DNA of 64,000 nt from Bryobacterales bacterium (GTDB lineage: Bacteria > Acidobacteriota > Terriglobia > Bryobacterales > UBA6623). The translations under genes were made by a program, and so were the position numbers. Position 1 is the stretch's first letter, and the number at the start of each line of letters is the position of its first letter. The stretch is from positions 4,267,985 to 4,331,984 of the forward strand of contig OY729422.1 in assembly GCA_963422305.1 (NCBI GenBank), in the 5' to 3' direction. The notes under the pieces were generated by a model. It did not search any database. It was given only the letters and a program-made list of their open reading frames with translations, and was not told the origin of the DNA. Of the stretch, positions 28,081 to 33,463 are shown one piece after another.

Positions 28081-29706
28081 ATGCTCGGCGCGGAACTGCG
28101 AATCCCCCTTCTCGACCTGGTCATCATCGTCGCCTACATGCTCGGTATTCTGGCCGTCGGGATTCTGTCCACGCGGCGCCAAAAGATGACCGGCGAGGCG
28201 TACTTTCTCGCCGGGCGTTCGCTCGGCTGGGTGATGATCGGCGCGGCACTGTTCGCCTCGAACATCTCGACGATCCACTTGGTGGGACTGGCGGCTTCGG
28301 GATACAACGAAGGTCTCGTCTGGGGGAATTTCGAATGGGCGGCGGCGTTTACGCTGATTGTCTTATCTCTATTCTTTGCGCCCTTCTACTTCCGCAACAA
28401 GATCGAAACGCTGCCCGAGTACCTTGAGCGGCGCTTCAATCCCGCCGCGCGTTCCTTCCTAGCGTTCATGGCGATTCTGGGCGCCGTGTTCATCCACATC
28501 GGCATGAGCCTCTATGCAGGCGCCAAAGTATTCGAGCAGTTCTTCGGCTTCGACGTGGTCATCTCAATCTTGATCATCTCGATCGTCACGGGCATCTATA
28601 CCGTCCTGGGCGGCCTGCGGGCCGTGGTCGTCACCGAAACCGTCCAGACTGTGCTGCTCGTCGGCGGATCGATCGTTGTGACGATCCTCGCGGTCATGGC
28701 CTTGCCCGAGCACGGCATCACGACCATGGCGGAGCTCAAGGCGGAGTTGCGTCCGCGTCAGTTGAGCATGATCTGGACCGATAACTCGGTCGGCCTCGCC
28801 TGGTATTCCGTGCTGCTCGGCTACCCCGTGCTGGGGATCTGGTACTGGTGTACGGATCAGACAATCGTGCAGCGTGTGCTGGCCGCGAAATCCGAGCGTG
28901 ACGCTCAAATCGGTCCGCTGTTCGCGGGTTTCATCAAGATACTGCCGATCTTCATCCTGGTGCTGCCGGGCGTCATCGGCTACGCACTTTACCGCGAGGA
29001 CATCGGCGCCGACGCGAACCAGGTATTGCCGACGTTGATTCAGCGGCTTGTGCCCAGCGGGCTCAAGGGCTTGATATCCGCAGGTCTATTGGCCGCGTTG
29101 ATGAGCACTATTGCCGCGGCTCTTAACAGTTGCGGTACGCTCTTCGCGGTGGATATCGTCGGCCGCCTCCGTCCGAATATTACCGATGCGGCACAGGTCC
29201 GCATCGGCCGCTGGAGCGCCGTTGCAGTAATGGCGCTAGCCATGCTCTGGTCGACGCAAGGCGACAAGTTCGGCAGCATTTTCGAGGCGGTTCAAGAGAT
29301 TGGCGCGGCTCTGGCGCCGGCCATCACGACCGTATTCCTATGGGGCGTCTTCTGGCGCAGGGGGACCGGGCAGGCCGCAGTTACAACGCTCGTCTTCGGT
29401 TTCATGATGGGCGCGACGGCGTTCATCCTCGATTTCAAAGACGCGCAAGGCTTCAAGACGATCACCGACGGCTGGGGAATCCCCTTCATGCTGCAAGCCT
29501 TCTACATGACGGTAATCTGCAGCGCGGTCTTCTTCGCAGTGAGCAAAATGACGCCGCCGCCGCCGGAGGAAAAGACCGCAGGCCTGACCTGGGAGAAACC
29601 GCTGAGCGCCCTCACGCGCCGGCGGCAAGGCGCAGGCCCGGACCCGCGACGCCTTGCCGCCGCCCTTTTCGCGACGATCTGCCTGCTCTACGTGGTCTTC
29701 CACTAA
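28081..29706 (+). CDS. Sodium:solute symporter (SLC5/SSS)
   Basis: YFLAGRSL, ASNISTIHLVGLA, YWCTDQTIVQRVLAAK, many TM helices. Confidence 0.95.
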   Translation: MLGAELRIPLLDLVIIVAYMLGILAVGILSTRRQKMTGEAYFLAGRSLGWVMIGAALFASNISTIHLVGLAASGYNEGLVWGNFEWAAAFTLIVLSLFFAPFYFRNKIETLPEYLERRFNPAARSFLAFMAILGAVFIHIGMSLYAGAKVFEQFFGFDVVISILIISIVTGIYTVLGGLRAVVVTETVQTVLLVGGSIVVTILAVMALPEHGITTMAELKAELRPRQLSMIWTDNSVGLAWYSVLLGYPVLGIWYWCTDQTIVQRVLAAKSERDAQIGPLFAGFIKILPIFILVLPGVIGYALYREDIGADANQVLPTLIQRLVPSGLKGLISAGLLAALMSTIAAALNSCGTLFAVDIVGRLRPNITDAAQVRIGRWSAVAVMALAMLWSTQGDKFGSIFEAVQEIGAALAPAITTVFLWGVFWRRGTGQAAVTTLVFGFMMGATAFILDFKDAQGFKTITDGWGIPFMLQAFYMTVICSAVFFAVSKMTPPPPEEKTAGLTWEKPLSALTRRRQGAGPDPRRLAAALFATICLLYVVFH

Positions 29707-29721
29707 GCGCGACGGAAACCG

Positions 29722-29742
29722 CCGCTTGCCAAGCACAAGCGG
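29722..29742. terminator. Hairpin between the SSS gene and the mini-array, possible terminator
   Basis: Inverted repeat CCGCTTG-N7-CAAGCGG; no strong U-tract. Confidence 0.4.
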
Positions 29743-29753
29743 ACCGATCCTAC

Positions 29754-29840
29754 CAAACAATGAGGCCGGGCCTTGGGTCCCGGAGATGTGCGAGCAAAAC
29801 ACCGGGGAAGCCGACACTGCTAACGCTTCAATGAAGCCCT
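29754..29840 (-). CRISPR. Degenerate one-spacer mini-array (type I-G-like repeats), candidate crRNA-like regulator
   Basis: Minus strand: partial repeat ...GGGCTTCATTGAAGC (ends 29825), 35-nt spacer (29824-29790), then 36-nt repeat ACATCTCCGGGACCCAAGGCCCGGCCTCATTGTTTG with a CCGGG/CCCGG stem. The shared TCATTG cores are 71 nt apart; adjacent to I-G cas genes. Confidence 0.8.
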
Positions 29841-29871
29841 TATATCGTCTAGCTTGGCAAAATCAGGAGCA

Positions 29872-29901
29872 TTGAATAATCTTAGTTAGAAGTGTAGTAA
29901 T
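29872..29901 (+). promoter_or_regulatory. Putative cas operon promoter containing the mini-array target site
   Basis: AT-rich tract with -35-like TTGAAT (29872-29877) and -10-like TAGTAAT (29895-29901). Between them lie TTA (29882-29884) and GTTAGAAGTGTAG (29885-29897), matching the spacer 5' end GTTAGCAGTGTCG. Confidence 0.6.
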
Positions 29902-29927
29902 CAATCAATTACAGAGAGATATGAACC

Positions 29928-30475
29928 ATGACGCTTGATCTGCAAACCCTGAAAGAAGCAGTCGACGGGACTGCCGCGGCGTTCCGCTGCGTCACAGACT
30001 ACCAGCCGGCCGGCGGCTCCGGCGACAAGGTCTTCCCTCCGACTTACGAGGGCGGGAAATACGCCACAGAAGAGCGGTGCGATCCTGCGATCGGCGAGAC
30101 TCGAAAGTGCGTACTGCTGGATTCCGTACAGTCGCAAGCCAAACGCATGGAACTGACGTTACTTGAAGCGCACCGTACATACAGACAAAGTGTCGCTTCC
30201 CTTGATTGTGACGACCTTCGATCAGGAAGAATTGCCCAAAAAGTTCGCCGTGACCAGCTCGGAAGCGCCCCACCGCGCCGCGGACGCGCTCTTCCGCGAC
30301 AGCCTGTTCGTCGGCCTGATTTTCCGTAAGTCGAGCAAGTGTCGCATCCTCGATACGGTGGACGTGCGCAAAGCCGCGGGACTGTTCGGCCTCTGCCCTA
30401 CCGCGCTGATATTCGGATTGTGGGACTCGACCGGGCCGCGCGGCGGCTTGGGCGCCAAGTTTCAGCGGGCGTTCG
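29928..30475 (+). pseudogene. cas7: Type I-G (I-U) Cas7/Csb1, frameshifted and truncated
   Basis: YQPAGGSGDKVFPPTY, LLDSVQSQAKRME, APHRAADA, PTALIFGLWDSTG..GLGAKFQRA are Csb1/GSU0053 motifs. Frameshift by tandem TACA at 30176-30183; homology appears to stop near 30475. Confidence 0.9.
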
Positions 30476-31297
30476 AGGATCGATCCGGCGAAGGCCGCGA
30501 CCCCGATCACCGGCTCGGCCGGCGTCAACTGGCGCGCAAGCCTGCAATCTTGCAAGAAATCAAACAAGCCAAAGGAAAACGCGCGCCGGACATGTTGGCC
30601 AAGGCTCTGACGAAGGCTGCGTTGGAACTGATCGAGGAGCAACTCCGCGCGATCGTGGTGTTCGCCAACCGAATCGCCGCGGCGCGGAAAATTTACCGGA
30701 TGCTGCAAGACCGAGAAGACATCGAGGCAGTTCTGCTTACCGGCCGCATGAGGCCCATCGACAAGGATGATGTCGTTGACCGGCAATTGACGCTTCTTCG
30801 GTCCGAAGTCTCCGAAAAACGTGCGTTGCCGAAGCCTCGGATCGTCGTTGCCACGCAGACCTTGGCAGTCGGCGCCGATCTCGACTTCGACGGCCTTGTC
30901 ACGGAGTGCGCGAGTCTCGATGCCCTGCGCCGGCGCTTCGGCCGTCTGAATCGCATGGGCCGGCCGATCGAAGCGCGCGCCGGATATCCTGCCCGCAAAA
31001 GACGGCCGGCGCGACCTGACCCTGCACCTGATTACCGGCCACCACGGCCATTGCCGTCCGTTCGTCCCAGTAGCCTGCGACGATCGAAACGAGACCGTGG
31101 ATTTCGAGTTGTGCGGCCGCCCGATGAGCTGGTCCGGAGGCGCCGGTCTGGAACGTCTCGACTCCGGCGTCGCGGACCGTTATTGGCGGTTGGCGCGGCG
31201 CTACGGCTGGTGGAGGCTGGCTTGGCTGGAAGCGCTGTTGCGGCTCGCCGATTGGCGGCGCAGTGAATGGGAGGAGACGCACGATGACGGCGAGTGA
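30476..31297 (+). pseudogene. cas3: Type I-G Cas3 fragments (helicase C-lobe and extreme C-terminal HD part)
   Basis: VFANRIAAAR, LLTGRMRP, VATQTLAVGADLDFDGLVTECASLDALRRRFGRLNR. After a frame change near 30980: LHLITGHHGHCRPF...RRYGWWRLAWLEALLRLADWRRS, the typical I-G Cas3 C-terminus. Walker A/B and most of the HD domain are absent. Confidence 0.9.
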
Positions 31298-32222
31298 AGC
31301 AAACTCGGGACTTTTGCTGTCCGGGATCGACGGAGGCAATCCGCTCGGGTTCCTTACGGCCGTTGGAACTGCCGCGGTCTTGCAGGACGCATTCCCGGAA
31401 ACGCGCCTCGGCTGGAAGCTGACGGCGGGCGGTTGGAGACCGTCTCTGCGCGGTTGCGGCAACAGTGAACAGGATCTCTCGAACAACCTTTTGAAGCATT
31501 TAACAAATGCTTCGACGGCCGTCTTCGATATCGACAACCGGATGCCGTTCGAAGCCGAAAGATTTTCCAGCGCTCTTCGCGATGCGCAACGCCGCTCGTC
31601 CATGACCGATCGCCGAGACGCCGATTTCCTTTCCGGTATGGGGACCGATCTATACCCCGATAGGAAAGGTCAATTCCAGGATTGGAGTTTCCGCATGGTG
31701 CGCAGCGGAGATGCCGCGGGGCAGGGATTGCCTTTCTATGCCAAGAAGATCCGCGAAAAAACTACCCTCGATCACATTCGGCGCTCTCTGTTCCATACCT
31801 GGGCCTACCGGGATGAAGGCTACAGTCTTCGTTGGGACCCGATGGAAGACCGGCGTTACGCGCTGCGCTGGCGGGACCCGAGCAAATCGAAGGCGTCCGA
31901 CAGTCCGGGAACCATGTTGGCCGCCAACGCCCTGGCTGTCGAGGCGCTGCGCCGGATCCCTACCTTGCTGCCCTCCGGAAAGCAAGCCCAAACTACGGGA
32001 TTTCAGCGGACCGGCCTGCGTGAGACTTACTTCGTCTGGCCGATCTGGACGCCGCTGTTGAAGATGGATACTCTGCGCTCGCTGCTTGCTTTATCCGATC
32101 TCGGCAAACATCCCTTGCCCCGCTCCTCTCTTTCCCAAAGAGGCATCGAAGAAGTTTATTGCAGCCGGCGCATCTCGCAGAACCAGTACTACAGCAATTT
32201 CTTGCCCGCGCAGACGCTTTGA
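31284..32222 (+). CDS. cas8g2: Type I-G large subunit Cas8g2 (Csb3/Cas8u2-like)
   Basis: GIDGGNPLGFLTAVG, SLRWDPMEDRRYALRWRDP, ANALAVEAL, FVWPIW; uninterrupted 312-aa ORF overlapping the cas3 end. Confidence 0.8.
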   Translation: MTASEANSGLLLSGIDGGNPLGFLTAVGTAAVLQDAFPETRLGWKLTAGGWRPSLRGCGNSEQDLSNNLLKHLTNASTAVFDIDNRMPFEAERFSSALRDAQRRSSMTDRRDADFLSGMGTDLYPDRKGQFQDWSFRMVRSGDAAGQGLPFYAKKIREKTTLDHIRRSLFHTWAYRDEGYSLRWDPMEDRRYALRWRDPSKSKASDSPGTMLAANALAVEALRRIPTLLPSGKQAQTTGFQRTGLRETYFVWPIWTPLLKMDTLRSLLALSDLGKHPLPRSSLSQRGIEEVYCSRRISQNQYYSNFLPAQTL

Positions 32223-32290
32223 TTTACGGCTTGTCCGTCGAAACATTGCGGCCGAAGAGCTGCTCGCACGATAGGCTGCAGTCGGTAACA

Positions 32291-33463
32291 ATGGAAGGAA
32301 GCGTGAAACATGCTCTTGCACTCCCACTCTTGTTCTCGCTGTGTCTTCCGGCGGTGGCGGAGCGTCGAGCAGAGGATCTCCTCGAGCGCGTGGGCGATCT
32401 CTACCGCAACGCCGAGAGTTACAGCTTTCTGGCCCGCGAACGGACGGCAACTCAAAGCAGAGGCATCCAAAAGACAACCCGCCGGGTCGTGAAGACCGCG
32501 CGCGACAATGAGGGGCGCTTGCGCGTTGAGCTCGACGACGGCGTCAACTCCGGCATTGTAGTGGACGATGGCCTCAACCGCTGGGTGTACATGCCTACGG
32601 ACGAACAGTATATGAAGCAGCCTTCCGGCGGCATTCCGCTTCCCGTCGTGCCCGGCATCGACTTCGCAGCAGCCGCCAAGCGCTTTACCGACCGCTACGC
32701 GATCGTCGGCGAGAGCATCGTCGAAGCAAAGATCGAAGGGATCGAGTCGCAGCCCGTGAACGGGTCCTCTGTCGATTGCCTCATCGTCAACGCGGCGTAC
32801 AGCCCTCCGCCGGGAATGCGGGGCGGAAAGATCGAGCGGCGGTTCTGGGTCGACCGACGATCGCTGCTGATCGTTCGCGAGCGATCGACGGCAATTATGC
32901 AGACGCTGCCGGCCGGAAGCTCGGTCGAAAAGATCGAGGAAATCCGTTTCGACGCCGCGCATGCCGGCCTGCCCGTTCCCCGCGAGGTCTTCCTCTTTAC
33001 CCCGCCGCCCGGCGCACGCCCGGTCGAGTCGTTCGCCAGAACCGGCGCCGGAGCGGAAGGGCCGGCGCCGGACTTCGCGTTGACCGACTTCGACGGCAAA
33101 TCCGTGCGGCTTTCTTCGCTGCGGGGCAAGGTCGTCCTACTCGATTTCTGGGCGACCTGGTGCGGACCGTGCCGCTACGATATGCCGTTCGTGGAGCAGT
33201 TGCACAAGGAATTGCAACCGCGCGGGCTCGAAGTTTTCGGCGTCAACGGGGAAGACGTCCGTAAGGCTGCGGGCTACCTGCGACGATTGGGATACACCTT
33301 TCCGAATTTGCGTGATCGTCCGCCGGTCGTATCACGGCTCTACCGAGTGCGCTCGATACCCACTTTCGTCGTCATCGACCGCCAAGGCAATCTTTCAAGC
33401 TATATGAAGGGGACTCGCAGCAAAGAGCAATTGCGCCTCGCCGTGATGAAGGCCGGTCTGTAG
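32291..33463 (+). CDS. LolA-like/DUF2092 domain fused to TlpA-type thioredoxin
   Basis: Signal peptide; LolA-fold-like region ending FLFTPPPGA; APDFALTDFDGK...DFWATWCGPC...SIPT. Confidence 0.82.
   Translation: MEGSVKHALALPLLFSLCLPAVAERRAEDLLERVGDLYRNAESYSFLARERTATQSRGIQKTTRRVVKTARDNEGRLRVELDDGVNSGIVVDDGLNRWVYMPTDEQYMKQPSGGIPLPVVPGIDFAAAAKRFTDRYAIVGESIVEAKIEGIESQPVNGSSVDCLIVNAAYSPPPGMRGGKIERRFWVDRRSLLIVRERSTAIMQTLPAGSSVEKIEEIRFDAAHAGLPVPREVFLFTPPPGARPVESFARTGAGAEGPAPDFALTDFDGKSVRLSSLRGKVVLLDFWATWCGPCRYDMPFVEQLHKELQPRGLEVFGVNGEDVRKAAGYLRRLGYTFPNLRDRPPVVSRLYRVRSIPTFVVIDRQGNLSSYMKGTRSKEQLRLAVMKAGL

Follow-up and report, generated by a model that had tools for sequence, protein, structure and literature searches.

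Introduction

Type II-A clustered regularly interspaced short palindromic repeat (CRISPR) systems reportedly include a form of autoregulation by tracr-L, said to have been described by Workman et al. Autorepression by degenerate mini-CRISPRs, known as CreR, has been demonstrated experimentally for types I-B, I-E and V-A (10.1101/2023.03.10.532045), and the same source reports that creA-like mini-CRISPRs were also found manually for type I-U, the old name of type I-G. The mini-CRISPR idea is thus not new for type I-G, having already been mentioned for I-U/I-G in print (10.1101/2023.03.10.532045). Here, we describe a mini-array consisting of two repeat-like sequences around one spacer-like sequence, located on the minus strand at positions 29754–29839 of a 64,000-nucleotide stretch of a Bryobacterales bacterium genome (contig OY729422.1; hereafter, the window), where it lies beside the remains of a type I-G CRISPR-associated (cas) module. 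In our assessment, the element is probably a degenerate mini-CRISPR of the CreR/CreA kind that belongs to an effector-only type I-G module, serves as a self-repressor in intact orthologs of that module, and survives in the window as an orphaned relic.

In the CreA RNAs of CreTA, the first repeat (psiR1) keeps the handle nucleotides, and the second (psiR2) keeps the part bound by Cas6 while its handle nucleotides are degenerate; partial pairing then directs the CRISPR-associated antiviral defence complex (Cascade) to a promoter without cleavage (PMC9458426). The mini-array described here is divided in the same way, with the handle in psiR1 and the Cas6-binding part in psiR2. What it appears to regulate is different, since CreA represses a toxin RNA gene, whereas the common regulated unit here is a cas module, with a small open reading frame (ORF) present in part of the loci. 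With CreR, the mini-array shares a degenerate repeat-spacer-repeat beside cas genes, a partial spacer match to an effector-promoter site flanked by a protospacer-adjacent motif (PAM), and a putative role as autorepressor. It differs from CreR in that the bench evidence reported for CreR comes from types I-B, I-E and V-A and none of it from type I-G, in that the regulated genes of the window are dead, in that psiR1 is cut down to ~15 nt without a hairpin, and in that the module has no recognisable cas8g.

Two further bodies of work bear on the comparison. A survey of mini-arrays gives, in a table, 235 type I-G loci with a mini-array fraction of 0.04; its main text offers no I-G example, and “I-G” occurs once, in that table (PMC10120712). 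The surveyed mini-arrays resemble ours in standing alone within cas loci, in having one spacer and in partially matching sites upstream of cas genes, whereas the present analysis contributes the 6-nt periodicity of the mismatch profile and the link to a cas8g-less module. The type I-G system of Thioalkalivibrio sulfidiphilus has a 36-nt repeat with a 7-bp stem, which Csb2 cuts 4 nt past the stem to leave an 8-nt handle; the 3′ hairpin remains bound by Csb2, each Cas7 accounts for five paired bases, and the PAM is TTN (PMC9638904). The repeat geometry (7-bp stem, 4 nt, 8 nt), the TTN PAM and the pairing in 5-nt segments are the same in the loci studied here. The T. sulfidiphilus system has Cas8g, whereas the present module comprises cas7g, csb2, cas3g and a Cas3-extension gene and has no cas8g. 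Literature searches returned no bench work on type I-G autoregulation; Figure S7 of 10.1101/2023.03.10.532045 and the supplements of PMC10120712 may already show this family.

The mini-array and its target in the window

Read along the minus strand, the mini-array begins with the partial repeat psiR1 (29839–29825), which keeps 3 stem nucleotides, 4 linker nucleotides and, as its last 8 nt, the handle ATTGAAGC (29832–29825); it has no hairpin. There follow psiS, a 35-nt spacer-like sequence (29824–29790) whose first 13 nt pair with the promoter site, and psiR2 (29789–29754), a full 36-nt repeat with a hairpin that ends ...CCTCATTGTTTG and whose last 8 nt have degenerated to ATTGTTTG. An earlier reading of this DNA, made from the letters of the window without database searches (hereafter, the sequence-only reading), had described a truncated repeat with its handle, then a spacer of 35 nt, then a full hairpin repeat with a decayed 3′ end, and each of these parts was recovered. 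Stems of 7–8 bp were predicted with RNAfold in 16 of 18 mini-array repeats, the two imperfect ones being that of locus L073 and that of the window, where the psiR2 stem carries one mismatch. An Rfam search of the psiR2 strand returned a CRISPR-DR16 match below threshold (15.3 bits vs. 35) and nothing else. The mini-array RNA as a whole does not fold more stably than its shuffles (z 0.49), and only the psiR2 hairpin is meaningful within that fold.

With one spacer, a repeat that is single-copy in the window and in the genome, and a spacer that is homologous across species, the element is not an ordinary CRISPR array, and no tandem array was found in the window. Its repeat-like parts nevertheless derive from the cognate I-G repeat. 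The I-G repeat that is present in 129 copies in the same genome, built of a 7-bp stem followed by 4 nt and then the 8-nt ATTGAAGC, carries the identical handle at its 3′-end, and the hairpin, 4-nt linker and handle of the mini-array are ordered as in the full I-G repeats of related loci. Comparison with full arrays thus assigns the repeat to the I-G kind, and not to an unrelated family, the outcome that the sequence-only reading had named as speaking against its own proposal.

The protospacer-like target lies on the plus strand at 29885–29902, 52 nt away, and is directly preceded by a PAM-like TTA (29882–29884). It matches the spacer at positions 1–5, 7–11, 13, 17 and 18. The claim that a TTA-flanked match at positions 1–5, 7–11 and 13 is interrupted at exactly positions 6 and 12 proved correct to the base (29885–29897, GTTAGAAGTGTAG). 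A weak promoter-like site, TTGGCA-17 nt-TAATCT, which scored 8/12 in our own scan, is situated upstream of cas7g on the plus strand (29854–29882); the target begins 2 nt past its −10 box and is separated from cas7g by only 43 nt.

If any base is allowed at positions 6 and 12, the 4.33-Mb genome contains three copies of the 13-nt pattern, both strands counted, where chance would give ~1.3. These are the spacer, the window target, and a site at a gene stop codon with a CCC flank (G000:C1:1272134, G000 being the window's own genome), which was judged to be a chance match. For scoring, each spacer was compared with its own region at 15 positions (1–18 without 6, 12 and 18) in 18 loci including the window. 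Among 2000 shuffles of the 95-nt region from the handle to cas7, four reach the 12/15 observed in the window and none retains the 10-nt seed. We also considered the target as an inverted duplicate of the handle plus the start of the spacer, as ATTGAA precedes both, and dropped this candidate; in relatives the stretch is promoter spacer and is unconserved.

Intact orthologs in the same genus

A DNA search of 61 relatives including G000, followed by comparison of the regions, revealed that the orthologous module is intact in three genomes of the same genus (G003, G005 and G006), where it occupies the same site between a symporter gene and a ResA-like gene. In each of the three, a partial repeat and a full repeat enclose a homologous spacer of 35 nt. 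The sequence-only reading had proposed that relatives with intact I-G loci be searched for an upstream mini-array with a covarying spacer and promoter, and such pairs were found before these orthologous operons. The spacers of the window, G003, G005 and G006 are homologous by descent and differ by point mutation, with the target changed alongside. At position 4, for instance, spacer and target read A/A in the window, G/G in G003, T/T in G005 and G/G in G006. The compensatory positions are 4 and 13 between the window and G003, and 1, 4, 9, 10 and 13 between the window and G006. In G003, a single promoter-like site was found in 461 nt (TTGACA-17-TAGAAT, 11/12); it is on the cas strand and ends 3 nt before the protospacer.

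The G003 module runs in the order small ORF (61 aa), cas7g (402 aa), csb2 (794 aa), cas3g (999 aa) and extension (379 aa), and no cas8g, no cas1/2/4 and no array were found in it. Judged by its recognisable genes, this is an effector-only module: a small ORF, cas7g, csb2, cas3g and the Cas3-extension gene, without a recognisable cas8g, adaptation genes or an array of its own. In G005, an insertion sequence (IS) element with a transposase ORF (L024:1880–3130) lies between the cas promoter and the protospacer and uncouples promoter, target and cas genes, while the module is otherwise intact.

Spacer-target profile across related loci

A protein-guided scan with the Cas7g of G003 yielded 56 loci at 59–100% identity, three of which are the same-genus loci. 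They occur in metagenome-assembled genomes labelled as Bryobacterales, Latescibacterota, Binatia, Nitrospirales, Caldilineaceae, Dehalococcoidia, Gammaproteobacteria and others, and Cas7g identity at this level across very distant phyla (L027–L082) points to horizontal spread of the module. A regular-expression search for two repeat-end motifs 64–80 nt apart located the mini-array in 17 of the 56 loci, and a looser handle search added L044 and L074 to give 19/56. That leaves 37 loci. In 18 of them, a stretch homologous to cas3g-extension or csb2 lies ≤2.5 kb upstream of cas7g, so that cas7g does not come first there.

The mini-arrays keep the same division of parts in different sequence. In 17 of 18 loci, the end of psiR1 reads TTGAAG followed by one further base; the remaining locus (L027) has a 1-nt deletion. 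In psiR2, the last four bases vary and the stem is kept, through sequences as different as the CCGGGCC, CCGGGGC, CCGCGAC and CCTCGCTC types, so that the handle resides in psiR1 and the Cas6-binding part in psiR2. Neighbouring full arrays in related loci end ...CGGCCYCATTGAAGC, and in L068 and L079 the repeats of the mini-array are near-identical to those of the adjacent full array.

When spacers were scored against their own regions, nine of the 18 loci scored 14, three scored 15 and three scored 13; the others gave 12 (the window), 11 and 10. As a control, 306 pairs of spacers with the regions of other loci averaged 9.2, and seven of them reached 13; these are probably kin pairs. In 14 of the 18 loci, none of 2000 shuffles reached the locus's own score. 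Across positions 1 to 24, the mismatches in 17 loci (L027 was dropped for a register and IS problem) number 0, 0, 4, 0, 0, 13, 0, 2, 5, 0, 0, 13, 2, 3, 4, 1, 1, 15, 14, 15, 14, 14, 13 and 15, where random sequence would give ~12.75 of 17. Positions 6, 12 and 18 therefore drift freely, at 13, 13 and 15 mismatches, while the 5-nt blocks between them are held and pairing ends after position 17. A 6-nt periodic profile of this kind is what selection through a type I Cascade would be expected to leave, and what a protein operator or an RNA hairpin would not. The site is flanked by TTN in 15 of the 17 loci and by CTN in two, against a background of 6.8% for TT. Compensatory changes are also found among the related loci, at positions 3, 8, 10, 11 and 13 between L067 and L073. 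A partial, seed-proximal match to a PAM-flanked site at or adjoining the cas promoter is thus a feature of the window and of the family, and these comparisons leave the interpretation of the element as a CRISPR RNA-like repressor well supported.

Two variations among the related loci are worth recording. A small ORF of ~40–75 aa with a strong ribosome-binding site is located between the target and cas7g in L023 (9631–9816, minus strand), L024, L025, L029, L043, L066, L068 and L079, and L055 and L060 share another sequence type of small ORF. In four gammaproteobacterial loci (L039, L040, L041 and L081), a handle-like ATTGAAGG lies ~150–200 nt before cas7g on the same strand, with an AT-rich, promoter-like stretch next to it; these loci may hold a variant in another orientation.

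Decay of the cas genes in the window

The state of the neighbouring genes was assessed by family scans, by tblastn with the genome's own intact paralogs, and by DNA alignment with the orthologs. The cas7g (Csb1) pseudogene (29928–30471, plus strand) has a 4-nt insertion at 30176–30179 and retains residues 1–195 of ~402, homology being lost at ~30471; its Csb1 matches, divided between two frames, do not reach the NCBIfam cut-off. Deletion has removed csb2 and most of cas3g, and family scans of the window gave no Csb2 match. What is left of cas3g (30502–31475, plus strand) comprises a helicase piece at ~30502–30984 and C-terminal pieces in other frames at 30989–31475, and the Cas3g match spans only profile positions 230–382 of 854. 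The one part of the module that is still open is the Cas3-extension ORF (31263–32222, plus strand; 319 aa), which is full length relative to its family profile (NF049934, E 9.5e-60, profile 1–298 of 299). A sodium/solute symporter gene (28081–29706) lies upstream, and a ResA-like gene follows the Cas3-extension ORF.

The sequence-only reading had placed the mini-array beside a type I-G cas operon of the cas8g2 type, and this part of it has to be given up. The genes are pseudogene fragments, with cas7g frameshifted and truncated, csb2 absent and cas3g in pieces, so that full-length cas7g, csb2 and cas3g are all missing from the window; nor was any cas8g2 found in the window locus. Unlike the window, the orthologous loci of G003, G005 and G006 do encode a cognate effector. 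Contigs from three public runs (of DNA or of unknown kind) span 29600–32300 without any difference, and the decay is therefore not a single assembly slip, though these runs may themselves be the source of this DNA.

As the cas genes have decayed and the same-site orthologs are intact, the window element has most likely been left behind as an orphaned relic. Some mild signs of relaxed constraint are in keeping with this view, namely the mismatch in the psiR2 stem and the sub-threshold promoter, as are the non-seed half of the spacer, which is more diverged in the window than in G003, G005 and G006, and the loss of the small ORF that all three orthologs possess.

Other type I-G modules and CRISPRs in the genome

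Four intact type I-G effector modules are present in the same genome at 2.39–2.45 Mb (G000:C1:2392456–2447864), clustered with one very large array. Module A is cas3g-cas8g1-cas7g-csb2. Module B has the genes of module A plus cas4/cas1, with an array containing 129 copies of the repeat end CGGCCCCATTGAAGC; the corresponding copy numbers are 124 in G003, 280 in G005 and 570 in G006. Module C is cas7g-csb2-cas3g fused to the extension; its architecture is that of the relic, with 57% and 42% identity over two cas7 pieces. Module D is cas3g-cas8g2-cas7g-csb2. Adaptation genes are found in only one of the four, and cas2-like remnants lie between the modules.

A whole-genome search with a regular expression found only two mini-array units outside the big array, that of the window and one divergent from the intact module D (G000:C1:2447892–2448075). 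The latter comprises a handle-like 8 nt (2447995–2448002), a 36-nt spacer (2448003–2448038) and a full repeat (2448039–2448075). Its spacer matches 2447895–2447912 at 15/15 scored positions, with mismatches at exactly 6, 12 and 18 and the PAM TTC, and this target lies 31–48 nt before the cas3g start. Upstream of module C, the closest intact paralog, no mini-array was found either by eye or by regular expression.

The Csb2 of the cas8g-less module (L023:6049–8433, minus strand) is 794 aa long and has an insert of ~270 aa relative to the 528-aa Csb2 of module C; its match to the family is weak and sub-threshold. The insert could replace the missing subunit. A second CRISPR array in the genome (G000:C1:2698300–2700200) has a 37-nt repeat of the GTTTCAATCC...GGAGAC type that is unrelated to the I-G repeat, and therefore represents another CRISPR type.

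Proposed mechanism and its weak points

We infer the following course of events in the intact modules. A minus-strand RNA would be transcribed and processed to carry an 8-nt handle, the spacer, and a 3′ hairpin for Csb2 to bind and cut. This RNA would be loaded into the module's own Cascade, on Cas7g, and would pair over positions 1–17, in 5-nt segments, with the TTN-flanked site located 2–19 nt downstream of the −10 box in the promoter of that same module. Pairing would be too short to license Cas3, such that Cascade would park at the site and transcription would be repressed, closing a negative feedback loop. That repression would proceed without cleavage is suggested by a single feature, the end of pairing after position 17. 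The proposal of the sequence-only reading, Cascade-guided repression of the element's own promoter, can accordingly be kept for the kind of element, which is conserved and covarying in intact orthologs, and not for the window itself, where no operon is left to repress.

Several observations weigh against this account. Because psiR1 lacks a hairpin, the 5′ handle cannot be generated by the usual Csb2 route. A search of the mini-array strand ahead of the handle in the 18 loci gave no consistent sigma-70-like promoter. On the opposite strand, a −10-like hexamer ends 2–19 nt before the site in 17/17 loci and scores ≥9/12 in 10 of them, in a scan that reports a best site whatever the sequence and was run without a shuffle control; a stricter consensus promoter scan of the window returned no site here. 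The positions other than 6, 12 and 18 were picked by a best-match search, and their low mismatch counts arise partly by construction, a bias at which the cross and shuffle controls are aimed. Kinship or horizontal exchange links the related loci, which therefore do not constitute 17 independent trials. Neither an upstream cas gene nor a mini-array was detected, by a crude search, in 19 of the 56 loci. The 12/15 match of the window is among the weakest of the family, and its psiR2 hairpin is the mismatched one noted above. Finally, the automated score for G005 (L027) is 10/15, no better than shuffles (699/2000), and the 9-nt seed match past its IS element was read by eye only.

Alternative explanations

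The mini-array of the window could still be active, its RNA being loaded in trans by an intact paralogous I-G module, where it might silence the relic transcript or act as a decoy. The genome's working I-G repeat has an identical handle, four intact cas7g-csb2 modules are available, the 10-nt seed and PAM are intact in the window, and the downstream Cas3-extension ORF is still open, all of which would be compatible with such a role. The psiR2 stem, on the other hand, is unlike the repeats of modules B and D in sequence, and CreA RNAs are reported to be mostly specific to their own locus (PMC9458426). The hairpin has also gained a mismatch, the non-seed half of the spacer is far more diverged than in the three intact orthologs, and the genome contains no second TTN-flanked seed target. 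We consider continued use in trans unlikely.

At the level of the family, the arrangement could be a CreTA-like guard, in which the repressed small ORF encodes a toxin or some costly cargo that renders the module addictive; its loss in the lineage of the window would then have let the module decay. The same means are used by CreA to repress the promoter of a toxin (PMC9458426). The small ORF, with its strong ribosome-binding site, directly follows the target in the three orthologs of the genus and in several other loci, and in the window it is missing, with the target just 43 nt from cas7g. Against this, L056, L067 and L073 keep the mini-array and target with no ORF of ≥25 aa detected between the target and cas7g, and several more loci have only short ORFs without a ribosome-binding site. 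As loci without the small ORF keep both mini-array and target, the cas genes are the common regulated unit. The small ORFs moreover belong to several unrelated sequence types, and the 61-aa ORF of G003 matches no NCBIfam family. A guard of this sort is quite improbable, slightly more so than use in trans.

Very improbable is that the element is all that remains of a deleted ordinary array, its last spacer with the terminal repeat, and matches the promoter by chance, or that it is an inverted repeat serving as a protein operator or RNA hairpin: the terminal repeat of an array often has a degenerate 3′-end, several deletions have struck the locus, and spacer and target are inverted repeats in the DNA, but the spacer is inherited and diverges across species by point mutation instead of being replaced, the single-spacer build recurs in 19/56 loci, mismatch is at random level at 6, 12 and 18 with a stop after 17 and TTN on one arm only, and 0/2000 shuffles keep the seed.

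Implications

The interpretation that we favour, that of a CreR/CreA-kind self-repressor orphaned in the window, opens no new category, and the element belongs to a known kind. What it would add is comparative sequence evidence, in the form of mismatch periodicity, PAM and compensatory changes, for CRISPR-derived autorepression in type I-G, and it would tie this autorepression to a little-studied, cas8g-less I-G effector module common to distant phyla.

A more far-reaching combination can also be envisaged. The module would be horizontally mobile and dispense with both adaptation genes and cas8g, its Cascade would read TTN through the Cas3-extension protein or the enlarged Csb2, the 5′ handle would be made without Csb2, and paralogous Cascades would take up the orphan RNA of the window, which would still be produced. 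That all of these hold jointly is rather doubtful. If true, another subunit, either the Cas3-extension protein or the enlarged Csb2, would do the work of the large subunit.

The profile itself, with pairing over positions 1–17, free positions 6, 12 and 18, and a TTN flank, may serve as a design rule for repression by I-G Cascade and as a search signature for further regulators of this kind. The window would then illustrate what remains after a guarded module dies, with the regulator and its operator outlasting the genes.

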